Assembly (NCBI GenBank): GCA_963800455.1
Contig: CAWDAY010000004.1
Location: 2,684,593 to 2,708,592 of the forward strand
Direction of reading: 5' to 3'
DNA: 24,000 nt
Source of the DNA: an uncultured Acidobacteriota bacterium
GTDB taxonomy: Bacteria; Acidobacteriota; Terriglobia; Acidiferrales; UBA7541
The translations under genes were made by a program, and so were the position numbers. The notes below the pieces were generated by a model, which was not told the origin of the DNA, searched no databases, and was given only the letters and a program-made list of their open reading frames with translations. Below are positions 1,681 through 24,000 of this stretch, piece after piece. Position 1 is the first letter of the stretch, and every line of letters starts with the position of its first letter.

Positions 1681-3867
1681 ATGGACCTCGTCATTCCAAG
1701 GGGCGGCGTGAGGATTGCAAAGGAATTGTCTTCGGGTTTCGCAGCGATCGCAGCCGCTGCGCTGATGGTAGCCTTGCCGGCTGTCTTCCATGGACAGCAA
1801 CGCGCCGGAGCAATTGCCATCGACGGCGACGATATCGCCGGTGTGGTCACCAGCGCCAGTGGGCCGGAAGCGGGCGTGTGGGTGATTGCCGAGACGTCTG
1901 ACTTTCAAACCCGTTTTGCCAAAATCGTTGTCACCGACGACCGCGGCCGATACCTGCTTCCCGAACTTCCGGAAGCCAACTATACCTTGTGGGTGCGCGG
2001 CTACGGGCTTGCCGACTCGCCGAAGGTCAAAGCCAAGCGGGGCACACTCGTCAATCTCACAGCGGTTCTGGCGCCCAGCCCGGCGGTCGCGGCCAAGGTC
2101 TACCCGGCGATCGCCTGGTTCGCGATGATGCACCTGCCGAAGGAAAGCGAGCTCGCCAATCTTAAGGGCGGCATGAACCGCTATCTTTCCACCATGAAGA
2201 GCGACGCCTGCGTTGGCTGCCACCAGCTCGGCGATGAATACACTCGCACCATCCCCGGGAATCTGGGGGCGTTTGCCTCCTCGCAGCAGGCCTGGATGCG
2301 CCGGCTTCAATCCGGACAGGTCGGCCTGCAAATGACCGGATTGGCGGCGTCGACTCTTGGCGGACTGCCTTACAAGTATCTTGCGGATTGGAGCGACCGC
2401 ATCGCGGCGGGCGAGCTTCCCGCCTATAAGCCGGAGCGGCCCTCGGGCCTCGAACGAAATGTGGTCGTCACGGTCCGGGACTGGGCGAGCCCCACAACGT
2501 ACCTTCATGACTTGACGTCGACCGATTGGCGCAATCCGACCGTCAACGCAAACGGACCCATCTACGGCTCTCCCGAACTCAGCACCGACGAATTTCCGAT
2601 CCTCGATCCCGTCAAAAATTCGGCCACCACCTTCCACGTCCCGGTTCGCGATCCCGATACTCCCGTCGCCCCGCCTGCGGCTGTCTTCGCTCCTTCGCCC
2701 GCCTGGGGCAACGAAGCGATCTGGAATAGCCGCGTCAACTCGCATAATCCGATCATGGACGAGAAGGGGCGTGTTTGGTTCACCGCGGTCGTACGGGCCG
2801 CGAAGAACGAACCGGCGTTTTGCAAGCAGGGCTCGGAAAACCCCTCGGCCAAGTTATTTCCGCTTACCAGTTCGGGGCGGCAGGTCGGGGTCTACGATCC
2901 AAAAACCAGGCAGTACACGTTCGTGGACACCTGTTTTTCCACGCACCATCTGCGATTTGCCGAGGACGCAAACAATACGCTGTGGTTCAGCAATGACCGC
3001 AACGCCCAACTGGCTGAGGCGGTGGGCTGGATCAACACGAAGATGTTCGACGAAACCGGCGACGCCGAAAAGTCGCAAGGTTGGACGGCGCTGATTCTCG
3101 ATACCAACGGCAATGGCAAGCGCGATGCCTACGTCGAGCCCGATCAGCCGGTGGACCCGAAGCTCGACAAACGGATCGTTTCCGACTTCTATGCCATCAT
3201 GCCGAATCCCGCCGATGGTTCCATCTGGGGAGCAACCCGCACGTATCCGGAGCGGCCCGAGCAGATCGCGGCCCTGGTCCGGCTGAATCCGGGGCCTAAC
3301 CCGCCGGCGACAACGCTGGCCGAAATCTACAACGTCCCGCCACCCGGATTTGGCGTCCGAGGCGCTGATATCGACCGCAACGGAGTCGTGTGGGTGTCGC
3401 TGGCAAGCGGCCACTTGGGTGAATTCGACCGACGAAAGTGCAAAGGTCCGCTCAATGGCCCCAAGGCTACAGGCGATCAGTGCCCCGAGGGCTGGACTTT
3501 CCACCGGTTCCCGGGCCCGGGGTTTCCGGAACTGCCACAATTCAGCGCGGAGTCGAGCTACTACACCTGGGTCGATCAGCGCAACACGCTGGGGCTCGGC
3601 GCCAACGTGCCCATTGCCACCGGCAATCTCTTCGACGGGGTTCACGCCTTCGTTAACGGCAAGTTCATAACGCTGCGAGTGCCGTATCCTCTCGGCTTTT
3701 TCAGCAAAGGCTTTGAAGGCCGCATCGACGACCCGAAGGCCGGCTGGAAAGGCCGCGGGCTTTGGGTTCCGAGCGGTGACCGCACCCCTTGGCATATGGA
3801 GGGCGGCAAGGGAACCAAGCCTCTGGTTGTTCACTTCCAAATGCGTCCGGATCCATTGGCAAAATAG
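1681..3867 (+). CDS. Exported CarboxypepD_reg-like domain protein with a single CxxCH haem-c motif; function unknown
   Basis: 728-aa ORF with a signal-like segment (AAIAAAALMVALPAVFHG). It has a CarboxypepD_reg-type beta-sandwich signature (GVVTSASGPEAGVWVIAETSDFQTRFAKIVVTDDRGRYLLPELPEANYTLWVRGYGL) and one CVGCH motif. An alternative GTG start at 1708 has a better SD (AAGGGG). Antisense ORFs 1657..2745 and 2854..3930 are shadows. Confidence 0.8.
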   Translation: MDLVIPRGGVRIAKELSSGFAAIAAAALMVALPAVFHGQQRAGAIAIDGDDIAGVVTSASGPEAGVWVIAETSDFQTRFAKIVVTDDRGRYLLPELPEANYTLWVRGYGLADSPKVKAKRGTLVNLTAVLAPSPAVAAKVYPAIAWFAMMHLPKESELANLKGGMNRYLSTMKSDACVGCHQLGDEYTRTIPGNLGAFASSQQAWMRRLQSGQVGLQMTGLAASTLGGLPYKYLADWSDRIAAGELPAYKPERPSGLERNVVVTVRDWASPTTYLHDLTSTDWRNPTVNANGPIYGSPELSTDEFPILDPVKNSATTFHVPVRDPDTPVAPPAAVFAPSPAWGNEAIWNSRVNSHNPIMDEKGRVWFTAVVRAAKNEPAFCKQGSENPSAKLFPLTSSGRQVGVYDPKTRQYTFVDTCFSTHHLRFAEDANNTLWFSNDRNAQLAEAVGWINTKMFDETGDAEKSQGWTALILDTNGNGKRDAYVEPDQPVDPKLDKRIVSDFYAIMPNPADGSIWGATRTYPERPEQIAALVRLNPGPNPPATTLAEIYNVPPPGFGVRGADIDRNGVVWVSLASGHLGEFDRRKCKGPLNGPKATGDQCPEGWTFHRFPGPGFPELPQFSAESSYYTWVDQRNTLGLGANVPIATGNLFDGVHAFVNGKFITLRVPYPLGFFSKGFEGRIDDPKAGWKGRGLWVPSGDRTPWHMEGGKGTKPLVVHFQMRPDPLAK

Positions 3868-14858: not shown

Positions 14859-15131
14859 ATGCGGAAATCAGCGCCCGGCAGCCAGCCCATCGCCGAAGCG
14901 ACCAGCGCTTCGATGAAAACGCTGGTCGAGGTATTGGTTGGGAAAGGGTTGGCTCCGCACTCGACCAAGGACATCTGCTTGGTGGTCAAGCTGGTGATGG
15001 CAAGTGCTGTGGATGAGAACGGCGATGAACTCTATCCGATGAAGTGGAACGCGGAGTTCATTGACGCACCAGTTGAAGTGACCGTGGATTCACACAACTC
15101 GCGACTCGTCTCTGTTTCACGACAAGGTTGA
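14859..15131 (+). pseudogene. Fragment of a tyrosine recombinase (phage-type integrase), N-terminal SAM-like/arm region only
   Basis: The segment KTLVEVLVGKGLAPHSTKDICLVVKLVMASAVDENGDELYPMKWNAEFIDAPV matches the N-terminal core-binding region I recall in a widespread integrase family (...L.P.TI+N....+K.V..SAVDE.GE.L+P.KWN.EFID.P). No catalytic domain follows; the ORF ends 15 codons later. Confidence 0.5.
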
Positions 15132-15244
15132 TTTATTCAGTTCACCACTGAGTTGTTAAAGCTTCTGAAAAACATAAGATTTGGGAAACGACGCGCCGTT
15201 GCGATGCCTTTTGCATGCGGGACCGATTGGTAGACCCGAAGCGA

Positions 15245-15273
15245 GGACGACGTCTTAAAATATGACGCCGTCC
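15245..15273 (-). terminator. Hairpin 12 nt downstream of the rsr stop (possible operon terminator)
   Basis: GGACGACGTC (15245-15254) / GACGCCGTCC (15264-15273) form a 10-bp stem (one G-U on the minus-strand RNA) with a 9-nt AT-rich loop. No strong U-tract. Confidence 0.3.
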
Positions 15274-15284
15274 CCTTTCGTGAA

Positions 15285-16604
15285 TTATATCCGTGGCATT
15301 AACTCCAGTTCGCGGATGTACTCGACAACAGCTTCACTCCAGCCGTCGATGTGCGTCCATGGACCGTAGCCGACACCGTTCTTGTTACTGGCAACGTTGA
15401 TCACATAGCCGCGGCCTCTCGGCCCCGGCACATGATCGTGGGCTTGTTCGTCTGTGATCACGATGATCCGGTCATAATTGTCCCGAATCTGTTCGAGCGC
15501 ACGGCCGAGGTAGGTTGCACTATGCGGCTGGCTCGCATCCAGCGCATCGCGCAACGCAAACCCTCGCCGCTGGGGCACCTCGACCAGGTTGTCCGAAAAC
15601 GTGAATGTGATCGCTTTCTCGCAAACTTCCCGGAGCAGAATGGCGAGGCCATATGCCGCGTCAGTTCGGAGCATCTCCGACCGGCGAGACAGCGCGGCCA
15701 TCATGCTGCCCGAAACGTCTACGAGAAGAACAGTTCGCCCGGGCAGTTTTTCCTGCGCCTTGAGCGAAGCAAGCATGGCCCGCTCGAGGGATTCCTCCCA
15801 CTGAGGCGCAAATCGCGCCGCAGCGAGAAAACGAAACGGCAGGACGCGTCCCGTCTTCATGGACTCAATGCCATCCACCACGAGAGATTCGTCTACGCCC
15901 GCCTGCTTCATGTTTCGCAGGTTACGAAGGAGTGCAAGCCCGCCGAGTTTTCGTTCGCGGAGCAACCGTTCCCATGCCTCACGCTTATCGGCACCGGAAG
16001 AGAGCGCCACCTCCCAGGTGTCGGGAGTTTGCAGCTCTCCTTCGATCAGCCGCTTCCACAGCGCGCTCTGTTCCGCGTCACGCGGCTTCCCGTGGCAAAG
16101 GAACAGAACGTCACGGAGACGAATCGGCCCGCTGCGGTCATACTTGGCGAGCTGGTATTCGTCGAATTTGCGGAAAGCCTCGGCCAGCCCTTTCTTCGCT
16201 TGGGCGGAGAGGGGAGCTTTGCCATCCTTCCAGTAGATTGCAACGAATTCCGCAAGTTCGTCCGCGCGCTGGATCACCTGTACAAGCGTGCGCGAAACAA
16301 ATTCGCGGTGCGTCTTCAGGCGCGCTATTTCACGAACGAGCAGTAACGGAGCGTGCCGAAGTTTCATCTTGGTTCGTGCCTCGACGGCAAGTAACGCTAC
16401 AATCTCGGCTTTCACCTTCGGCACGAGCGACTGAATGCGGCCGGCGATCTCCACTCCGTCCTCATAGAATTGGTCCTCCCACAGCAAGCATGCGAGCACC
16501 GATCGCCGCAATTGAAGCTCGGGGGAAATATTTCGCGCAGGAGCTCCTTCGTGCGTGCGAGTCCCCCACGGAAACGGAATTTTCAAGATGTTCAGTCGTG
16601 CCAT
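15285..16604 (-). CDS. rsr: Ro60 ortholog Rsr (TROVE domain + vWA domain)
   Basis: 439 aa with a strong SD (AAAGGAAAGGAGG). The TROVE-like HEAT-repeat N-region includes EDQFYEDG, RHAPLLLVRE, LRDVLFLCHGKP and LLRNLRNM. The C-terminal vWA has a MIDAS motif (LLVDVSGSM). It sits in a locus with rtcBA, rtcR and Y-RNA-like units. Confidence 0.9.
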   Translation of the reverse strand: MARLNILKIPFPWGTRTHEGAPARNISPELQLRRSVLACLLWEDQFYEDGVEIAGRIQSLVPKVKAEIVALLAVEARTKMKLRHAPLLLVREIARLKTHREFVSRTLVQVIQRADELAEFVAIYWKDGKAPLSAQAKKGLAEAFRKFDEYQLAKYDRSGPIRLRDVLFLCHGKPRDAEQSALWKRLIEGELQTPDTWEVALSSGADKREAWERLLRERKLGGLALLRNLRNMKQAGVDESLVVDGIESMKTGRVLPFRFLAAARFAPQWEESLERAMLASLKAQEKLPGRTVLLVDVSGSMMAALSRRSEMLRTDAAYGLAILLREVCEKAITFTFSDNLVEVPQRRGFALRDALDASQPHSATYLGRALEQIRDNYDRIIVITDEQAHDHVPGPRGRGYVINVASNKNGVGYGPWTHIDGWSEAVVEYIRELELMPRI

Positions 16605-16633
16605 TGTGTCCTCCTTTCCTTTGCCAAATTCAA

Positions 16634-16784
16634 TCGTCGGGGAATTGGTGGCAACGGATGCAGCCTAGGCTGCCGATTGCTCTACCTTCTGAGCTACACG
16701 GAGCGACCGCGAGGTGGATCCGAGGCAGGAGTCGAACCTGCGACCCATCGATTAGAAGCAACCGTCACCTGCGCCACCGACGAA
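16634..16784 (-). ncRNA. Y-RNA-like unit Y5 (YrlA-like): closing helix plus circularly permuted tRNA-like module
   Basis: Minus-strand RNA: the 5' UCGUCGG-UGGCG... pairs with the 3' ...UUCC-CCGACGA. Internally, the T-arm GCAGG-UUCGACU-CCUGC (16741-16725) PRECEDES an imperfect acceptor-like helix closed by a loop. This is followed by GUA + D-arm GCUC-AGAAGGUA-GAGC (16694-16679), then the hairpin GCAGC-CUAG-GCUGC. It ends 30 nt before the rsr ATG. Boundaries are approximate. Confidence 0.6.
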
Positions 16785-16811
16785 TTCTGTATTGCTCGTT
16801 GTTCAAGATCT

Positions 16812-16967
16812 TTCACCGGGGAAAATCGGACACGGGGCTTTTCTGTGCGGTTTCCCGCATTGAGCTACCCCGACGATCGGGAGCAGGAGTTGAACCTGCA
16901 ACCTCCCGCCGCTCTCGCGACGGGCGCTCTACGTCATTGAAGTATCCGTGTCTTTCGCCACCGGCGA
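16812..16967 (-). ncRNA. Y-RNA-like unit Y4 with tRNA-like module (T-arm, GNRA-capped arms)
   Basis: The 5' UUCGCCGG-UGGCG-AAAGACACGG pairs with the 3' CCGUGUC-CGAUUUUCC-CCGGUGAA. Internal order: GUAGAGC, then an 8-bp hairpin CCCGUCGC-GAGA-GCGGCGGG (16924-16905), AGGUU, T-arm GCAGG-UUCAACU-CCUGC (16899-16883), hairpin CCCGA-UCG-UCGGG, GUAGCUCAA, and hairpin UGCGG-GAAA-CCGCA (16859-16846). It starts 5 nt after the stop of the 108-aa ORF. Confidence 0.55.
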
Positions 16968-16971
16968 ATTG

Positions 16972-17298
16972 TCATCGTGAGTTTTCATCCAGGATGAGCG
17001 CGATTTTTTCGCTGCTATTTTCGGTTTCATCGAGACACACGAAGCCCGCGTCCCGCTTCAGTGCGACCTTGTCCAGAACGATGGCGATTTCTTCCATTTC
17101 ATCGAACGTTGGCTTGTTCTTCTCGATGTACGCGGTGCATGCGCGCACGGAAAAGTGCATCCGCCGTTGCGGCCACAATGCCTGGCACACGACGACCAAT
17201 TCGGTCTCGCCGTATCCCCGCGCACTGAAAGCTCGCGAACACGATTCGCACAAAGATGGTCCGTTGACGGGAGTCCCGTTCTTCACATAGATGCCCAT
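16972..17298 (-). CDS. Hypothetical 108-aa protein (CxxC plus two further Cys), embedded in the Y-RNA array
   Basis: ATG at 17298 is preceded by AGGAGGTAAATC (strong SD). The protein reads MGIYVKNGTPVNGPSLCESCSRAFSARGYGETELVVVCQALWPQRRMHFSVRACTAYIEKNKPTFDEMEEIAIVLDK..., with an acidic C-terminal tail. It has the same strand and tight spacing as the flanking operon elements. I recognise no family. Confidence 0.6.
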   Translation of the reverse strand: MGIYVKNGTPVNGPSLCESCSRAFSARGYGETELVVVCQALWPQRRMHFSVRACTAYIEKNKPTFDEMEEIAIVLDKVALKRDAGFVCLDETENSSEKIALILDENSR

Positions 17299-17380
17299 GA
17301 TTTACCTCCTTTCCAAGAAGCGTGAATATTGCGCCTCTGAATCCGCGAGAAATCCTGCACGGCCTTTTCTCGGAAAAATA

Positions 17381-17545
17381 TTCGCCGGGGAACAAGCGCC
17401 CAGGGTTGTCTCAAGGCGGTTTTCAGTAGGTGCCTTGTCCTTCGGGACTACGCCCCCGCCCCTACTGCTTCCTTATCCTTGGCAGGATTTCCGGTCCTGC
17501 GCGACGTTGGCGGAGGAAGTAACCCTCGACTACGCCACCGGCGAA
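17381..17545 (-). ncRNA. Y-RNA-like unit Y3 (no canonical T-loop; different effector module)
   Basis: The 5' UUCGCCGG-UGGCG-UAGUCGAGGGUU pairs with the 3' AACCCUGGGCGCUUG-UUCC-CCGGCGAA (perfect 8-bp closing helix plus GGGUU/AACCC). Internal hairpins are GCAGGA-CCGGAAA-UCCUGC and CAGUAGG...GUCC-CGAA-GGAC...CCUACUG. Confidence 0.45.
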
Positions 17546-17551
17546 ACTTAT

Positions 17552-17661
17552 GGCCAGGGAAAATCAGGCACGGCGATATTGGGGATTCGAACCCCGCCGC
17601 TTTTCGCTTGAGCAAAGAGCGGTCTTCGCCCGAGAAGTATCCGTGTCTTACGCCACTGGCC
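17552..17661 (-). ncRNA. Y-RNA-like unit Y2 (contains a consensus T-arm)
   Basis: The 5' GGCCAG-UGGCG-UAAGACACGG pairs with the 3' CCGUGCC-UGAUUUUCC-CUGGCC. Internally there is a 10-bp arm CGCUCUUUGC-UCAA-GCGAAAAGCG followed by the T-arm GGGG-UUCGAAU-CCCC (17595-17581). It shares the exact 16-mer AAGACACGGAUACUUC with Y4 (forward coordinates 17634-17649 and 16939-16954). Confidence 0.5.
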
Positions 17662-17668
17662 GCTTGAT

Positions 17669-17741
17669 CCTGGGGGAATGACCGTCTACGGTCTTTTTTG
17701 TCGAGTGACAGTCGATGAAATCGCAGACTGCGCCACCCAGG
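17669..17741 (-). ncRNA. Y-RNA-like unit Y1 (short, 73 nt)
   Basis: The 5' CCUGGG-UGGCG-CAGUC... pairs with the 3' ...GACGGUCA-UUCC-CCCAGG. Internal hairpins are CAGUC-UGCGAUUUCAUC-GACUG (17730-17709) and GACCG-UAGA-CGGUC. Confidence 0.4.
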
Positions 17742-17976
17742 TTCAAAAAATTGGAACTAGCAAAGAATTGATGTGAAAGAAGATAGCTATCGCGAGGGAC
17801 CGGACCACGTTCGGACACAATCCCGGCCCAGCATCAATCCCGCTTGCCGATCCATCGAATTGTGTTTGCGATGCTGCATTCCGAACATTCTCCAGAGCCG
17901 CGAATTCTAGATGAATTTCTCGTTTTGCGCAATAGTAAATATTCGATGCCAGAGTCAGATATTTCGGCGGCATCAT

Positions 17977-19014
17977 TCAAGTCGCTGGACTCACCTCGAC
18001 TCTCGTACACCCACTTTCCTCGCGAGTCTCGAAACAAACAGGTAAGAAGGTGGATACGACATCCATATTCGTCCGAGCGTGCCGGTTCAACTTCGAAGCC
18101 GTGAACACTCCGCCGCCCGCCAAAGCAAAAGGGAGCAATAGTTGATCGGCCAAATGCTCGCCGACCGCAGCTGCAGACGCAATGTAAGCGCGCGCTTCCT
18201 TGACGGCCTCCGTTGCGACGCTTTCGGCGCTTGCCCCGAGCCGGCCAAATCCGCAGAACAGTTCCGTCATCCCGGTGGATGTTCCCACTTCGATCAACAC
18301 GACGTTTCCCGGCCCGACAGAATTCCTGGTTTCGACGATTCGCATGCATTTGTTGTCCCAATTCAGCAAGTGCGCAACAGTGTCAATCTCGCGGCGTGCA
18401 ATGGCGGGAGACAAGTTCGCGACGATTGCCAATACACTCCGACGAGTGATTTCGCCGCGCTCTATCATGTCAGTCGGCGACAAGTGTTCGGACGGCTCAA
18501 CAGTCGCAGTGAAGCATCCGCCTCCTACGGGATAGAAGCCATATCGCTCCAGATTCACACTTACTTTCGGTCCGAGCCTGTTAATGACTGGCAAAAAGCA
18601 CTTCTCAAGAAAATCAAAGGGAGGTGCCGCCTGATTGTGTGTACCGCCCTCAATCGTGATTTGGCTCGGTCCAGACGACATCATCAGAGCCGGCAAGATC
18701 GTTTGAAATACGAGTGTGCTGCTCCCAGCCGTTCCGATGACGAAACGGTGCTTCCCCGGTCGTACAGTTCCGGGAATAAAGGTAAGAGTCTTCGATCCGA
18801 GAGTCGCGCCTTCGACTTTTGCCTCTCCAACTTCGGATGCAGCGAGAACCGCCGTAAGGTGTTGCCTTAGCAAACCTGGCCGTTCCCGCTTCGCCCGGAT
18901 GTTTTCAATGCGGAACGCTTTTCCGGTTGCGAGCGACAGGCTGAGCGACGAGCGCAGAATCTGTCCGCCGCCTTCGCCCGAAGATCCATCGATCCGAATC
19001 ATGTTCCGCTCCAT
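17977..19014 (-). CDS. rtcA: RNA 3'-terminal phosphate cyclase RtcA
   Basis: 345 aa, collinear with E. coli RtcA: IRIDGSSGEGGGQILRSSLSLSLATGKAFRIENIRAKRERPGLLRQHLTAV..., GTAGSSTLVFQTILPAL, AAVGEHLADQLLLPFALAGGG, and the His-containing segment NRHARTNMDVVSTFLPV. It starts 10 nt after the rtcB stop. Confidence 0.95.
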   Translation of the reverse strand: MERNMIRIDGSSGEGGGQILRSSLSLSLATGKAFRIENIRAKRERPGLLRQHLTAVLAASEVGEAKVEGATLGSKTLTFIPGTVRPGKHRFVIGTAGSSTLVFQTILPALMMSSGPSQITIEGGTHNQAAPPFDFLEKCFLPVINRLGPKVSVNLERYGFYPVGGGCFTATVEPSEHLSPTDMIERGEITRRSVLAIVANLSPAIARREIDTVAHLLNWDNKCMRIVETRNSVGPGNVVLIEVGTSTGMTELFCGFGRLGASAESVATEAVKEARAYIASAAAVGEHLADQLLLPFALAGGGVFTASKLNRHARTNMDVVSTFLPVCFETREESGCTRVEVSPAT

Positions 19015-19024
19015 TTGCCTTCAG

Positions 19025-20254
19025 TCATCCTTTAACGCACACAACTTGGTGCAACGTATGAACGATTTCCACCAAGTCGGCCTGCGCCGCCATTACAGCC
19101 TCGATCGACTTATAGGCGGCTGGAGTTTCGTCGATCACGTCTGCGTCCTTCCGGCACTCTACGCCGGCAGTCATGCGTTCGTGATCTGCTACGGAAAATC
19201 GCCGCTTTGCTTCGCCACGAGACATCGCACGACCCGCCCCGTGACTACAGCTTTGGAAACTTTCCGGGTTACCCTTGCCGCGAACGATATAGGAACGCGC
19301 CCCCATGCTGCCGGGAATGATCCCCATATCGCCTTCGCGCGCACGGACCGCGCCTTTTCGAGTGACCAGAACATTCTCGCCGTAGTGCGACTCCCGTGCG
19401 ACGTAGTTGTGGTGGCAATTAATCGCCTTCAACTCCGCGACGAATGGTCGCACTTCACTCGAAGAACGGACGGCAGCAACAATTTGTTCCATCATCAGAT
19501 GCCGATTCCAGCGAGCGTAATCTTGTGCCCACTCGACTGCCGCGACGTAGTCATCAAAGTGTTCCGAATGCTCCGGGAAATAAGCCAGATCACGATCGGG
19601 CAGATTGATGAACATTCGTTCCATATCTTTTCGGGCGAGCTCGATGAAGTGGCTGCCCATTCGATTGCCCACGCCGCGTGAGCCACTATGCAGCATGAAC
19701 CACACCGCATCCGATTCATCGAGACACACTTCGATGAAGTGATTCCCGGTGCCCAGCGTGCCCAAGTGATTCGAGTGATTTCCTCGATCGAGCTTGGGGT
19801 GCTTTTCGAGAATCGTGTCATACCGCGGCTTTAGCGTTTGCCAAACGTCCAGCGTGCGCGCCGGGATGTCATTCCACGCCCCTCGATCGCCTCGGCCACC
19901 GTGGTTCGTTCGGCCATGAGGTACGGCCTTCTCAATCGCTTCGCGAACGCCCTTCAGAGTTTCCGGGAGGTCGCGCGCGTTGAGATCCGTTTGTACGGCC
20001 ATCATGCCGCAACCGATGTCGACGCCGACCGCAGCCGGGATAATCGCGCCCTTGGTCGGGATCACGCTGCCAATCGTGGCGCCCACGCCCCAGTGCACGT
20101 CCGGCATCGCAGCAACCCATTTGAAAACGAACGGAAGTTGCGCGACGTTGACAAGCTGTTGGCGCGCCTGGTCCTCTAAGGCGACGCCCTTGGTCCACGC
20201 CTTGATGGGTATGCCCTTCTCAGGAACAATGACGTTATAAGTTGTCTCGGACAT
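19025..20254 (-). CDS. rtcB: RNA-splicing/repair ligase RtcB
   Basis: The start is set at ATG 20254 (MSETTYNVIVPEKGIPIKAWTKGV...) with GGAGGAG SD, giving 409 aa. It is collinear with E. coli RtcB (KMWTKGV, MPDVHxGxGxTIGSV, HSGSRGxGN, INCHHNY). The track start at 20410 would place the sigma54 promoter inside the CDS. Confidence 0.95.
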   Translation of the reverse strand: MSETTYNVIVPEKGIPIKAWTKGVALEDQARQQLVNVAQLPFVFKWVAAMPDVHWGVGATIGSVIPTKGAIIPAAVGVDIGCGMMAVQTDLNARDLPETLKGVREAIEKAVPHGRTNHGGRGDRGAWNDIPARTLDVWQTLKPRYDTILEKHPKLDRGNHSNHLGTLGTGNHFIEVCLDESDAVWFMLHSGSRGVGNRMGSHFIELARKDMERMFINLPDRDLAYFPEHSEHFDDYVAAVEWAQDYARWNRHLMMEQIVAAVRSSSEVRPFVAELKAINCHHNYVARESHYGENVLVTRKGAVRAREGDMGIIPGSMGARSYIVRGKGNPESFQSCSHGAGRAMSRGEAKRRFSVADHERMTAGVECRKDADVIDETPAAYKSIEAVMAAQADLVEIVHTLHQVVCVKG

Positions 20255-20393
20255 TGTCGCTCTCCTCCATTTCAGAACTCTTGGTCCCGTGAGGCGCGGA
20301 GTACATTGTCCCCCGCGCCTCCCTCGGTTCGCGATTCCCACATCGCTCGCGAACTTCCCGCTCGCTTTTTTATCGTCTCTGGCGAGATATAAA

Positions 20394-20409
20394 TGCAGGC
20401 CACGTGCCA
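20394..20409 (-). promoter_or_regulatory. Sigma54 (-24/-12) promoter of the rtcB-rtcA-Y-rsr operon
   Basis: The minus strand reads TGGCAC-GTGGC-CTGCAT against the consensus TGGCAC-N5-TTGCW, with GG and GC at canonical spacing. It lies ~140 nt upstream of the rtcB ATG and between the divergent rtcR and rtcB genes, as expected for RtcR-dependent operons. Confidence 0.75.
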
Positions 20410-20517
20410 ATCTCGATGGCGAAGGTAAGGCACTGCGACTAAGGGAGATACCACCGGGAACCTCCGAAAGAAACTCGATGCGACGATCCCATAAGATACG
20501 ATATTATAAATATAGAT

Positions 20518-22116
20518 ATGCCGGACAAGCCACATGTCGCGATCGGCCTATTGGGCACGACCCTTGACGCGGGCCGCTCGCAGGATCGCTGGTCGAGTTG
20601 GCGGCCAACCGTTGCCATCTGCATGCAACCGGACTTTGTGATTAAGCGCTTGGAACTACTGCACGGATTACGTGACAAGACCCTGGCCCATCGCATCGTG
20701 AGCGACATATCAGCCGTCTCACCCGAAACATCCGTGAAGCTGCACGAAATCGAATTTGGCGATCCCTGGGACTTCGAACGTGTATACGAGACCCTTTTCA
20801 AGTTCACACGCGGCTACCCGTTTGACACGGATAACGAGGAATACCTGATCCACATCACGACGGGTACGCACGTTGCCCAGATCTGTCTCTTCCTGCTAAC
20901 AGAGTCTCGATACCTGCCGGGAAAATTGCTTCAGTCCGCCCCCGAACGCGATAGGAAGGCGCCTGGAAACATAAAAATAATCGACCTGGATCTTTCCCAG
21001 TACGACCGCATTGCTTCGCGATTTCGTCAGGAAGCGCGTGATGCAGTCTCTTACCTGAAGGGAGGAATCGATACAAAGAACGCTGCGTTCAACCAACTCA
21101 TTGACCGGATCGAACAGGTTGCCATCGCCACTCGAGACCCACTTCTCCTGATGGGTCCCACGGGAGCCGGCAAATCGAGGCTCGCCCGAAGAATCTATGA
21201 GTTAAAGAAAATGCGCCACACAATCACAGGAGAGTTCATCGACGTAAACTGCGCGACACTTCGAGGCGACGGGGCGATGTCCACGCTCTTTGGACACGTG
21301 AAGGGAGCCTTTACCGGAGCGCTCAAGGATAGACCCGGAGTCCTTCGGGCCGCAGATAAAGGAATGCTATTTCTGGACGAAATCGGAGAGCTTGGAAACG
21401 ACGAGCAAGCGATGTTGTTGCGGGCTCTGGAAGAGAAAACTTTCCTGCCGCTTGGATCGGACCGTGAAGCTCACAGCGATTTCCAAATGATTGCGGGAAC
21501 GAACCGCGACCTACTCTCAGCCGTCCGGGAGGGCCGCTTTCGTGAGGATCTTCTGTGTCGAATCAATTTATGGACGTTTACATTACCGGGCTTGAGGTCG
21601 CGTCCTGAGGACATCGAACCCAACCTGCAATTTGAGCTAGACCAATTCGCGCAGCGCACTGGCCATCGTGTAACCCTCAGTAAAGAGGCCCGCGAGGCTT
21701 TCCTTCGTGCCGCGCTCGCCTCGTCAGCAAAGTGGACTGGCAATTTCCGTGATCTGAACGCCGCGGTCGTCCGGATGGCCACGTTGGCACAAGGCGGACG
21801 AATTTCCGTTGAGATTGTTGAAGAAGAAATCGAAAGGCTCAAGGCGACTTGGGCGGCACTCGAAGAACAAGAAGAATCGGATGGCCTTCTTACTCAAATT
21901 CTAAGCGCAAAAGCGCTCGACCATATCGACCTGTTCGACCGAGTTCAGCTTGCTCGTGTGATTCAAGTTTGCCGCGATTCACGTTCGATGTCGGAAGCTG
22001 GCCGTCAATTATTCGACGCCTCGCGAACGCGCAAGACAAGTACGAATGATGCGGATCGCCTACGCAAGTATTTAGGCCGATTTGGAATCGAATGGGATCA
22101 AATTGTGAGAGCGTGA
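20518..22116 (+). CDS. rtcR: Sigma54-dependent transcriptional activator RtcR (CARF sensor domain + AAA+ + HTH)
   Basis: 532 aa, collinear with E. coli RtcR from end to end. Shared segments: VAIGLLGTTLD...WRPTVAICMQ...LELLH...ISAVSPET...DPWDFERVY...YLIHITTGTHVAQICLFLL...IIDLDLSQY (CARF-type N-domain), GPTGAGKS Walker A, GHVKGAFTGA sigma54-contact loop, and NDADRLRKYLGRFGIEW at the C-terminus. Confidence 0.95.
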   Translation: MPDKPHVAIGLLGTTLDAGRSQDRWSSWRPTVAICMQPDFVIKRLELLHGLRDKTLAHRIVSDISAVSPETSVKLHEIEFGDPWDFERVYETLFKFTRGYPFDTDNEEYLIHITTGTHVAQICLFLLTESRYLPGKLLQSAPERDRKAPGNIKIIDLDLSQYDRIASRFRQEARDAVSYLKGGIDTKNAAFNQLIDRIEQVAIATRDPLLLMGPTGAGKSRLARRIYELKKMRHTITGEFIDVNCATLRGDGAMSTLFGHVKGAFTGALKDRPGVLRAADKGMLFLDEIGELGNDEQAMLLRALEEKTFLPLGSDREAHSDFQMIAGTNRDLLSAVREGRFREDLLCRINLWTFTLPGLRSRPEDIEPNLQFELDQFAQRTGHRVTLSKEAREAFLRAALASSAKWTGNFRDLNAAVVRMATLAQGGRISVEIVEEEIERLKATWAALEEQEESDGLLTQILSAKALDHIDLFDRVQLARVIQVCRDSRSMSEAGRQLFDASRTRKTSTNDADRLRKYLGRFGIEWDQIVRA

Positions 22117-22135: not shown

Positions 22136-24000
22136 CTAATTCACGGAGAATAGCGTAGGCTCCACGACAGCCTGCGCTTCGGGATTGTAGTAGTCGTACA
22201 AGGTCGAAGGAGGTGTCACGGCTTTCAACCCGAAACGCGGCTTAAACGTAAAAGAAAACTTCGTGCCCCCTGCGTGCGGCCAGAGATAAACGACCATTCT
22301 GTCCGGCAACACTTCGTACTGGTTGATGTCCCATCCGGATTCCTTCATTGCCGTCTCGACCGAGCTTCTGTCCACTTCCGCGCCGGGTGGCAGGCCGATT
22401 TCGGCCAGCATCATTCCGTAACCTCGAAATCCAATTCTCTCGGCTTCGACACTGCATCGAGTGCTCTCCCCCACCTTGGCCGACGGGCTCTCGTAGTGGA
22501 CTCGCAGCCGCAAAGTGTCCGAAGATTTGTCTTCGTGCTGGAAGTCTTCCTCCTTTGCGGTCTGGACCCAGGGCACATAGTAATCCGAGATCAATTGGAG
22601 CGACGCCTGTGCGGATCCTGCGCCACGGCGAATTTCCAGATGATGTGGTCCCGGGGAAATAAATTTCGATATATCGGCCGTGACCGGGGCGGTCAGTTCG
22701 TCGGGACTCGGCATGTTAATGGTTAAGGTCTGACGACCGTCGACCAGGATCGACGCTACGAGGTTCGCCTTTGACGAAACGCCCGGTCCGCTCGTCGTCC
22801 TTGGAACCGTGAACGAATGGATTGCATCCAGGACGTTCACAGTCGCCTGCGTCGAGAACCAAATCCCGAATCGATCTTGATTACGAAGCAGAAAAAGCAA
22901 ACCCCGGGACACGAGTGGATCGGCCACTGTATTGTTATCCGATGCTTTCTCAAACGCTTGCAGCACGATCGCGGTCGTTTCGACTCGTCCAGTTAGCCCC
23001 CATCCATAGAAGGGCGTATTGGTCTCAAGAGACCAGTAGCTGAAGTTGCCTTCGCGATGTTCCAGTTTCCGCAGCCTCTCAAGACTTTCAGTGACACGAG
23101 GCTTGTCTCCCACATAGAACGACGCGAGCGCGTAGGACGCGATCAGATAGGGCTCATCGTAAGAGCTGGCTTGCTTTTCCAAATAACCGAGCGCTCGCGC
23201 GACTGCCGTCGATGCCGCTTTGGATAAACGTGCGTTTTCTGCGGGATCAGCCACCGTGACTTTTGTTGTGGCAATGACCCGTGCGATATATGCGGTCAAG
23301 ACAGCCGTCCGGTGCGCGTCTTCTGGTCCGCCCCAGGTGGTCGCGATCCAACGACCGTCGTCCTGCTCGTGGTGCAGCAGCCACGACAGATTTCCCTGGG
23401 CGATAGAATCATCGACGTTTGTGAACTCACGTGCTTCACTTAGAAATTTCATGGCGTAGGCAGTCAGCGCGGGATCGGAATCACCTCTACCCCAATACGT
23501 GATTCCTCCATCAGGGGCTTGATAAGAGAGCAGCCGCCCGTAGCCGAGTTCCACATACCGCTTCGCGCGGGCGACAACGGTCGGTGCGGCACCCCGCGCG
23601 TCTTTGGTGTATTGCAGAAGCAAGAGGCTCGGATAAGCCGACGAAATTGTTTGTTCCGCGCAGCCGTAAGGACGGCCCAAAATCCCCTCGACACTTTCGA
23701 GGACGTGAGCATTCAGGTTCGGATAGATCTTCAGTGTGCCTTCAAGAGACCCGGGAATCGTGTTATCCGGAATCCGGATGTCCACGCCTGCGGAGTCTCC
23801 GAAGATTTGGCTGACCGTCTCGACGTGTTCTTCTCCGTTCGGTCGAACGGTGACCGTTCGCTCGATGGCGTCGCCCGCATCTGCGCCACTCGCGACGATT
23901 CTTTGCTTCCCGTTCTTGATCGGCGCGGTCGCATGGAATTTGAACACTTCGTTCTTGCTGTCGCGTGCAGGGACGGTAGTCTTCACAGAAGTCGGACTCA
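22136..24000 (-). CDS. Alpha-2-macroglobulin family protein with thioester motif; C-terminal ~620 aa only (N-terminus beyond the right edge)
   Basis: It contains GRPYGCAEQTISSAYPSLLL (CxEQ thioester site) followed by the alpha-helical TED-like region and a C-terminal receptor-binding-like beta domain. The track start at 23986 is a GTG inside an ORF that stays open to position 24000. Confidence 0.85.
   Translation of the reverse strand, partial: SPTSVKTTVPARDSKNEVFKFHATAPIKNGKQRIVASGADAGDAIERTVTVRPNGEEHVETVSQIFGDSAGVDIRIPDNTIPGSLEGTLKIYPNLNAHVLESVEGILGRPYGCAEQTISSAYPSLLLLQYTKDARGAAPTVVARAKRYVELGYGRLLSYQAPDGGITYWGRGDSDPALTAYAMKFLSEAREFTNVDDSIAQGNLSWLLHHEQDDGRWIATTWGGPEDAHRTAVLTAYIARVIATTKVTVADPAENARLSKAASTAVARALGYLEKQASSYDEPYLIASYALASFYVGDKPRVTESLERLRKLEHREGNFSYWSLETNTPFYGWGLTGRVETTAIVLQAFEKASDNNTVADPLVSRGLLFLLRNQDRFGIWFSTQATVNVLDAIHSFTVPRTTSGPGVSSKANLVASILVDGRQTLTINMPSPDELTAPVTADISKFISPGPHHLEIRRGAGSAQASLQLISDYYVPWVQTAKEEDFQHEDKSSDTLRLRVHYESPSAKVGESTRCSVEAERIGFRGYGMMLAEIGLPPGAEVDRSSVETAMKESGWDINQYEVLPDRMVVYLWPHAGGTKFSFTFKPRFGLKAVTPPSTLYDYYNPEAQAVVEPTLFSVN

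Follow-up and report, generated by a model that had tools for sequence, protein, structure and literature searches.

How can a module shaped like a transfer RNA (tRNA) be joined to the Ro-binding stem of a bacterial Y RNA? The question is raised by a stretch of 24,000 nucleotides (hereafter the window) from an uncultured acidobacterium of the Acidiferrales (GenBank assembly GCA_963800455.1, contig CAWDAY010000004.1, positions 2,684,593 to 2,708,592), in which two RNA elements, Y4 and Y5, lie next to each other on the minus strand, upstream of the gene for the Ro60 orthologue Rsr. Two arrangements are established for bacterial Y RNAs: YrlA has the order T arm, acceptor, D arm, with the Y stem joined at the anticodon stem (PMC4201824; 10.1101/312249), and in Yrn1, which lacks a full D arm, the elements follow as D, anticodon arm, T, the Y stem occupying the acceptor position (PMC4201824 section 10). 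A sequence-only reading of the window had described Y4 and Y5 as circularly permuted tRNA-like modules opened at different points; all the strings that it quoted are present on the minus strand where it placed them, and the observation of two differently permuted modules is confirmed. We put a probability of roughly three in four on the reading that Y4 and Y5 are Y RNAs and partners of Rsr, encoded in an RNA repair operon, whose tRNA-shaped modules are wired differently. That Y4 adopts a fold tethered through its D-loop is, on the sequence comparisons given below, likely.

The wiring of Y5 is the familiar one. The Rfam YrlA model (RF02553) aligns with Y5 over its full length (model positions 1-114; 38.9 bits, E = 3e-6), a score that lies below the gathering threshold of 69 bits. 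RNAalifold analysis of 12 Y5 relatives recovered a closing stem, a short anticodon-like helix, T arm, acceptor hairpin and D arm. Among these relatives the short helix, with the consensus CG(R)U/A(Y)CG (n = 12), shows exchanges between G:C and A:U; the acceptor hairpin and an added hairpin 3' of AUCG also covary, and the D arm GCUC...GAGC is invariant. The Rsr-binding motif of Y5, GGCGCAGG, differs by one change from GNCGAAN0-1G, and its relatives carry GGCGAAGG. Y5 thus has the YrlA order of T arm, closed acceptor stem-loop, full D stem-loop and a closing helix that resembles an anticodon stem; the whole YrlA architecture is there, together with one added 3' hairpin. The proposal that this module is opened at the anticodon position, as in YrlA, is borne out by both the Rfam alignment and the covarying fold.

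Y4 is arranged otherwise. In tRNA numbering its chain runs through 19-21, 22-25, 26, an anticodon arm capped by a tetraloop, 44-48, 49-65 and a closed acceptor hairpin to 8-9, 10-13 and 14-15, and since it starts at 19-21 and ends at 14-15 it is opened inside the D-loop. The 5' strand of the Y stem is followed by AUACUUCAAUGAC and then by GUA, GAGC and G, so that the D 3' half comes first, then the anticodon-like arm, the T arm and the acceptor hairpin, and last the D 5' half. This is not the order of Yrn1, and a contiguous D stem-loop 3' of the acceptor, as in YrlA, is missing: only UAGCUCA stands there, with GAGC placed 5' of the anticodon-like hairpin. Y4 retains U8, A9, G10-C13, A14, N15, G22-C25, G26, A44-G46 and N48, and with them what we take to be the bases that take part in the core triples of tRNA (U8-A14, A9-A23-U12, G45-G10-C25 and G46-G22-C13). 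In the terminal stem, near the 5' end, GGCGAAAG matches the motif GNCGAAN0-1G as defined for YrlA-type stems (PMC4201824). Two details of the sequence-only reading need adjusting: of the several extra GNRA-capped arms attributed to Y4, one is found besides the anticodon-like arm, and the acceptor hairpin is present with 6 base pairs, the closing one being U:G, rather than 5.

The Y4 element order is common to 24 loci, every one of which adjoins rsr or rtcB. Eighty genome loci were collected by Rsr similarity, and in these acidobacterial loci the Y4 type is a minority, occurring in 11 of the 80 (L001-L009, L044 and L070). Look-ups of Rsr homologues added L201, L208, L216, L218, L219, L220 and L223; a metagenome scan with the pattern TAGAGC..T arm..TAGCTC, nearly all the output of which consisted of tandem tRNA genes with short spacers, yielded L097 and L133, and L225 is a relative of L133. 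With the window, all of these except L133 and L225 are acidobacterial. In L133 and L225 the order is rsr, YrlA-type RNA, Y4-type RNA, rtcB, and the RtcB is closest to that of Burkholderiales, with about 81% identity. Of four neighbours of Burkholderiales-like RtcB that were looked up, three had neither rsr nor Y RNAs. In two IMG/VR contigs (L249 and L251) a Y4-type element lies directly upstream of Rsr homologues that share 48-53% identity with that of the window, and their T stems (GUUGG/CCAAC and AUGGG/CCCAU) differ from the window's, as does that of another lineage (GCGGG/CCCGC). A search of 80 further IMG/VR rsr loci with R1, a covariance model built from eight Y4-type cores that scores the Y4 core at 96 bits, gave no Y4-type element; all 80 had YrlA-type RNAs with a V hairpin. 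A YrlA-type RNA is also present at most of the Y4-type loci checked, with none clear in L002.

A related module is widespread at Terriglobia rsr loci (for example L014 at about 1100-1200, L016 at about 2960-3050, L019, L050 and many others). It reads GG(U/C)AGAAACAGCC-UUCG-GGCUG, T arm, GGGC-GAAA-GCCC and Y stem, and so has the hairpin order of Y4 without the UAGCUC half and without a conserved GAGC.

The three enclosed hairpins of the Y4 type covary strongly. MAFFT alignment of the full-length RNAs misaligned the variable hairpins, so alignments guided by covariance models were used, with R1 aligning 21 cores. In these cores 98.5% of the positions paired in the proposed helices form standard pairs, as against 85% in shuffles and about 40% with slid partners. 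Compensatory changes were found in 14 of the 23 pairs: seven of eight pairs in the anticodon-like stem, six of six in the acceptor and one of five in the T stem. These values were attained by 0 of 500 shuffles. The extra hairpin shows one, from G:C to C:G in L201; its loops are mostly GNRA (GAAA, GCAA, GCGA), with AAAA in L002 and ACAA in L219. The Y4 order is therefore not a product of chance, recurring as it does in 24 homologous loci with pairing beyond that of shuffles.

The split D stem is conserved to the letter. Its four pairs are G:C, A:U, G:C and C:G in all 21 aligned cores and are identical in L006, L249 and L251. Over the 24 loci GAGC and GCUC are invariant, UAGCUC is found in 23 (L225 has UGAGCUC) and A14 in 23. 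Where related modules lack UAGCUC behind the third hairpin, GAGG, GAAG or GAAA stands in the place of GAGC. No D-stem variant was found by a parser with unconstrained letters, which returned only GAGC/GCUC, or by R1 on the 80 acidobacterial and 80 IMG/VR rsr loci. Such invariance matches that of YrlA, in which the D and T stem sequences are reported to be nearly invariant though dispensable for tertiary structure (PMC4201824).

A second signal comes from outside the helices. Positions 15 and 48 form a Watson-Crick pair in 17 of the 24 RNAs (G:C in 8, A:U in 7 and U:A in 2), where shuffling gives a mean of 7.7 (p = 8e-5, a value that takes no account of sequence relatedness). The pair switches within both acidobacterial clades, and the same kind of test gave no complementarity signal for positions 14, 16, 46 and 47. 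We take it to be the counterpart of the Levitt pair of tRNA. If 15 and 48 pair, the 5' D half must sit against the variable loop.

Folding calculations agree with this arrangement. RNAalifold, applied to nine full-length RNAs of the window clade, produced unprompted a D stem closing three hairpins, together with the GNRA hairpin and the Y stem. Forcing the D stem in the window's own Y4 costs 0.3 kcal/mol (-67.6 as against -67.9 kcal/mol), and the minimum-free-energy fold of the isolated core is the proposed junction, closed by the D stem in 21 of 21 cores. A single-sequence minimum-free-energy pairing of GACG with the acceptor loop was rejected, as it is not conserved in relatives. The split D halves, the covariation of the hairpins, the 15:48 pair, de novo folding and energetics all speak for the earlier suggestion that Y4 is a tRNA mimic joined to its Y stem through the D-loop.

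Besides the disregard of relatedness in the 15:48 statistic, several points weigh against this fold. The exceptions at 15:48 comprise five non-pairs and two U:G pairs among the 24. Since GAGC/GCUC never varies, covariation in the D stem is uninformative either way and gives no direct support; the covariation check that had been proposed for this helix left the pairing uncontradicted and equally unsupported. The metagenome pattern and the R1 model, moreover, partly required GAGC/GCUC. In the single-sequence ensemble the D stem of Y4 has a probability of just 0.15. RNAalifold on the second clade gave no D stem, from a poor alignment that we do not count as evidence because L208 and L216 were shifted in it. 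The D-loop itself departs from tRNA: the window clade has C at the expected G18 (GAC-G-UA-GAGC), other clades having GGUAGAGC or GGAUAGAGC, and RNAalifold pairs the UAC of the conserved UACUUC with GUA, in competition with the D-loop reading. The G18/G19 portion of the Y4 D-loop is an uncertain assignment, and the elbow between D-loop and T-loop may not be tRNA-like. Both Y4 and Y5, finally, fall below the Rfam YrlA cut-off.

In every clade this stretch (16930-16945 in the window, about 3290-3302 in L004) could form a mini-hairpin from these letters, none of which varies: UAC-UUCG-GUA in many clades, UAC..UC-AAU-GA..GUA in that of the window.

The alternative that fares best, though we think it improbable, is that Y4 is an ordinary YrlA which has the optional V stem-loop before its T arm, has lost its D arm, and in which GAGC/GCUC takes the place of the anticodon stem or is a relic. 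Many YrlA RNAs do have a V stem-loop in that place (Chen 2014, PMC4201824), in many YrlA-type RNAs at related loci a hairpin of this kind precedes AGGUC or AGAU, and the Rfam YrlA model aligns with part of Y4 (model positions 27-81; 23.9 bits). The topology, a closing helix with hairpins, is identical under either naming. However, the closing helix of Y4 has the exact sequence of a D stem with its tRNA flanks (U8 A9, A14, UA and G26), invariant in both halves across the lineages of the 24 loci, and N15 covaries with N48. The hairpin is wired like an anticodon arm, with 1 nucleotide between it and GAGC and 5 between it and the T arm, and because of this connectivity and the lack of any other anticodon stem in Y4 the name of V stem-loop does not fit it. 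What the Rfam alignment makes into a D arm, at the cost of non-canonical pairs, is a separate, covarying GNRA hairpin.

It is considerably less probable that Y4 is a precursor from which the Y stem is removed, its D-loop ends being joined by RtcB to give a closed or complete tRNA-shaped RNA in the manner of algal permuted pre-tRNAs. The operon does encode RtcB and RtcA, tRNA genes permuted at the D-loop junction (20/21) exist in Cyanidioschyzon merolae (PMC3978253), and processing of this sort was raised for YrlA by Wang et al. (10.1101/312249). Yet the Y4 hairpin ends in a tetraloop rather than an anticodon loop, and conservation of the Rsr-binding motif speaks for a mature RNA that still has the stem. 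No bulge-helix-bulge motif is evident, though no search aimed at one was made. To our knowledge, bacteria have no splicing endonuclease.

Least credible of all is that the region is debris of rearranged tRNA genes or pseudogenes without RNA function: ARAGORN (not in its dedicated permuted-tRNA mode) found no tRNA gene in the window, cmscan gave no tRNA at E <= 10, no Rfam family reached its cut-off in the window, the only matches by E-value in 15500-19500 being to YrlA, and no promoter or terminator was detected beside the elements, but the elements are kept beside rsr or rtcB in 24 loci of distant lineages with compensation in every variable helix and conservation of the Rsr-binding motif, and the elements would have no promoter of their own because they lie inside an operon. 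A tRNA gene, permuted ones included, would show a cloverleaf with an anticodon loop of 7 nucleotides and an open acceptor end; here the anticodon-like arm ends in a tetraloop and the acceptor is a closed hairpin.

Table 1. Positions of the Y RNA elements and neighbouring features in the window, with the basis of each assignment
Feature	Position	Strand	Basis or remark
Y5, complete YrlA-type Y RNA	16635-16781	-	Rfam YrlA alignment and consensus fold of 12 relatives
Y5 T arm GCAGGUUCGACUCCUGC	16725-16741	-	Rfam YrlA alignment, consensus fold
Y5 closed acceptor-like helix	16697-16724	-	covariation among relatives
Y5 UA and complete D arm GCUC AGAAGGUA GAGC	16679-16696	-	Rfam alignment, consensus fold
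Y5 short helix CGAU / AUCG	16747-16750 / 16674-16677	-	leads into Ro-binding stem; covaries
Y5 AUCG, then extra hairpin GCAGCC-UA-GGCUGC	16660-16677	-	both helices covary
Y4, complete Y RNA with predicted D-loop-permuted tRNA-like module	16814-16965	-	conserved closing stem GCCGGUGGCG ... UUCCCCGGUG
Y4 Rsr-binding stem, 5' strand, with GGCGAAAG	16946-16965	-	pairs with 16814-16837 (RNAalifold)
Y4 linker AUACUUCAAUGACGUA	16930-16945	-	conserved UACUUC and 3' D-loop part (G19 U20 A21 in the tRNA reading)
Y4 GUA GAGC	16926-16932	-	string check
Y4 D-stem 3' half GAGC (tRNA 22-25)	16926-16929	-	invariant in 24/24; pairs with 16862-16865 in folds
Y4 anticodon-arm-like hairpin CCCGUCGC-GAGA-GCGGCGGG, 8 base pairs	16905-16924	-	7/8 pairs compensatory
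Y4 variable-loop-like AGGUU (positions 44-48)	16900-16904	-	AGG conserved; last base covaries with base after GCUCA
Y4 T arm GCAGGUUCAACUCCUGC (GCAGG UUCAACU CCUGC)	16883-16899	-	comparative alignment
Y4 closed acceptor-like hairpin UCCCGA-UCG-UCGGGG	16868-16882	-	6/6 pairs compensatory
Y4 U8 A9, GCUC (10-13), A14 A15	16860-16867	-	D-stem 5' half; UA GCUC A at 16861-16867; next base U
Y4 extra hairpin GCGG-GAAA-CCGC	16847-16858	-	predicted by RNAalifold
Y4 A-rich linker ACAGAAAAG and Rsr-binding stem, 3' strand	16814-16846	-	RNAalifold
rsr (Ro60 orthologue)	15285-16604	-	TROVE and vWA_Ro60; directly downstream of Y4/Y5
108-codon open reading frame	16972-17298	-	between Y RNA genes
Y3	~17383-17543	-	Y-RNA-like module
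Y2	~17553-17660	-	Y-RNA-like module; T arm of 4 base pairs, GGGGUUCGAAUCCCC
Y1	~17669-17741	-	Y-RNA-like module
rtcA	17977-19014	-	upstream of Y4/Y5, same orientation
rtcB	19025-20410	-	upstream of Y4/Y5, same orientation; longest open reading frame 461 amino acids
sigma-54-like site TGGCACGTGGCCTGCA	20394-20409	-	upstream of rtcB, within the 5' end of its longest open reading frame
rtcR	20518-22116	+	RtcR domain and sigma-54 activator domain; divergent
alpha-2-macroglobulin-like gene	22136-23986	-	TED and receptor-binding domains; extends past the analysed region

The genes around Y4 and Y5 mark this acidobacterial locus as an RNA repair operon of the RtcR type. Along the minus strand the order is rtcB-rtcA, three Y-RNA-like modules, a 108-codon open reading frame, Y4, Y5 and rsr (Table 1), and the nearest homologues of its Rsr are from Terriglobales and Candidatus Acidiferrales. 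Both RNAs lie upstream of rsr on its own strand, Y5 ending 30 nucleotides and Y4 about 210 nucleotides before its start, and thus inside the range of about 4 kb from rsr in which YrlA is encoded. Because the RtcB of relatives has 409 amino acids, as against 461 for the longest open reading frame in the window, rtcB probably starts further downstream and the sigma-54-like site probably serves as the operon promoter. Neither strand of 15000-20700 gave a sigma-70-like promoter, and the coding strand inside the RNA array gave no terminator. These negatives fit co-transcription of the array, as reported for Yrn2-tRNA-Yrn1 in Deinococcus (PMC4201824).

The product of the 108-codon open reading frame is a small conserved protein in which four cysteines (C17, C20, C38 and C54) are invariant; it has no Pfam match, and its homologues are all annotated as 'hypothetical'. 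They occur in 39 of the 80 acidobacterial rsr loci, often stopping a few nucleotides before a Y RNA, and this gene may be a part of Rsr/Y RNA operons that has gone unrecognised; its AlphaFold model has a predicted local distance difference test score (pLDDT) of 40. The three further Y-RNA-like modules (about 17383-17741 in all) have the same closing stem, GGUGGCG...UUCCCC, and none of Y1, Y2 and Y3 matches any Rfam family. The open reading frame beyond rtcR encodes a bacterial alpha-2-macroglobulin-like protein and is unrelated to the Y RNAs.

In the mechanism that we propose, Y4 and Y5 would be co-transcribed with rtcB, rtcA and rsr, probably under RtcR and sigma-54, and then cut out of the transcript. 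Their terminal stems would bind Rsr through the Rsr-binding motif, as we infer from YrlA and Yrn1, and the second module of each would adopt a tRNA shape with a closed acceptor end. In Y5 the Rsr-binding stem would continue from the anticodon-stem position into a module of T arm, acceptor hairpin and D arm, the L-shape hanging from its anticodon end. In Y4 the stem would instead be inserted in the D-loop, with GAGC upstream and GCUC downstream closing a four-way junction that holds the tetraloop-capped anticodon-like hairpin, the variable loop of 5 nucleotides, the T arm and the closed acceptor hairpin; the stem would exit on the D-loop side, and the closed acceptor end and the tetraloop anticodon arm would point away. 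Because they are wired at different points, the two RNAs would offer the same surface of D and T stems in different orientations to Rsr.

The sequences themselves show the anatomy, conservation, covariation and gene context of the two RNAs; analogy with YrlA and Yrn1 suggests that they bind Rsr, are processed out of a polycistronic transcript, fold into an L and serve as tether or decoy. YrlA adopts an L shape (PDB 6CU1; Wang et al. 2018, 10.1101/312249), Yrn1 binds Rsr and tethers it to PNPase (PMC4201824), and Hughes et al. suggested for YrlA a possible role as competitive inhibitor of the anticodon nuclease by which the operon is triggered (PMC7790460). Rsr binding and the modifications pseudouridine 55 and dihydrouridine are further features of the YrlA family. 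The tRNA-shaped modules of Y4 and Y5 may likewise act as tether, gate or decoy, the tRNA-binding partner being, for example, PNPase or an anticodon nuclease. It is speculation that the anticodon-arm mimic of Y4, which has no anticodon loop to cut, would suit the role of a nuclease inhibitor.

Comparison with these systems sets Y4 apart. YrlA resembles both Y4 and Y5 in its place near rsr on the same strand, its GNCGAA stem, T arm, closed acceptor hairpin and GCUC/GAGC D stem; Y4 differs from it in a divided D arm, in a Ro-binding stem that enters at the D-loop, where that of YrlA continues from the anticodon stem, and in a closed anticodon-arm-like hairpin that is absent from YrlA. Yrn1 of Deinococcus radiodurans shares with Y4 an effector module of three stem-loops that includes a T arm and an 'anticodon arm', but the middle hairpin of Y4 is its T arm, its acceptor is a closed hairpin and its D stem is formed from distant strands. 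Yrn1 was accordingly rejected as a topological precedent for Y4, since it has the native order D, anticodon arm, T (PMC4201824 section 10). An element of that native order was seen beside an Rsr homologue of 30% identity in the IMG/VR contig L241 (reverse strand, about 2536-2626): UUACUUC-UAGCUCAACGGUAGAGC, an arm with a loop of 7 nucleotides, a T arm and a Y stem, which stands at the acceptor position as in Yrn1.

Closer parallels to both break points are found in tRNA genes. In the permuted tRNA genes of Cyanidioschyzon merolae the type II break lies at 37/38, within the anticodon loop; the type I break lies at 20/21, in the D-loop (Soma 2014, PMC3978253). Among such genes, known from C. merolae, other algae and archaea, type II resembles Y5 and type I resembles Y4, the acceptor being closed by an intervening sequence. 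They nevertheless encode real tRNAs with anticodon loops, bulge-helix-bulge junctions and a circular intermediate (PMC3978253), whereas Y4 and Y5 are bacterial, lack an anticodon loop and have a Ro-binding stem. Both break points are thus precedented in tRNA genes and not in Y RNAs. The sequence-only reading was not aware of any description of the Y4 topology, and the searched literature describes attachment on the anticodon side and the acceptor side only; full-text searches, the scope of which did not extend to reviews in subscription journals, gave no description of a Y RNA tethered through the D-loop.

On the current view, a bacterial Y RNA uses a tRNA-shaped module to tether Ro60/Rsr to its partners. 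Because current models miss the Y4 class (the partial Rfam match to Y4 being a case in point), surveys of Y RNAs would undercount it. A bolder idea, which we regard as possible and rather doubtful, is that D-loop-tethered mimics are a third Y RNA architecture, kept beside a YrlA of the same operon for a different role, perhaps as a decoy that offers anticodon nucleases an uncleavable anticodon arm or, more radically, as RNAs that RtcB religates across the D-loop into a closed tRNA shape. Retention in Y4 of the split D stem together with the core nucleotides of tRNA, in spite of the broken D-loop, supports selection on the core fold. A second wiring of the same surface, in at least two bacterial phyla and beside divergent rsr genes of IMG/VR contigs, would amount to a natural experiment in geometry, in which whatever binds the D and T stems must tolerate, or discriminate between, two very different orientations.

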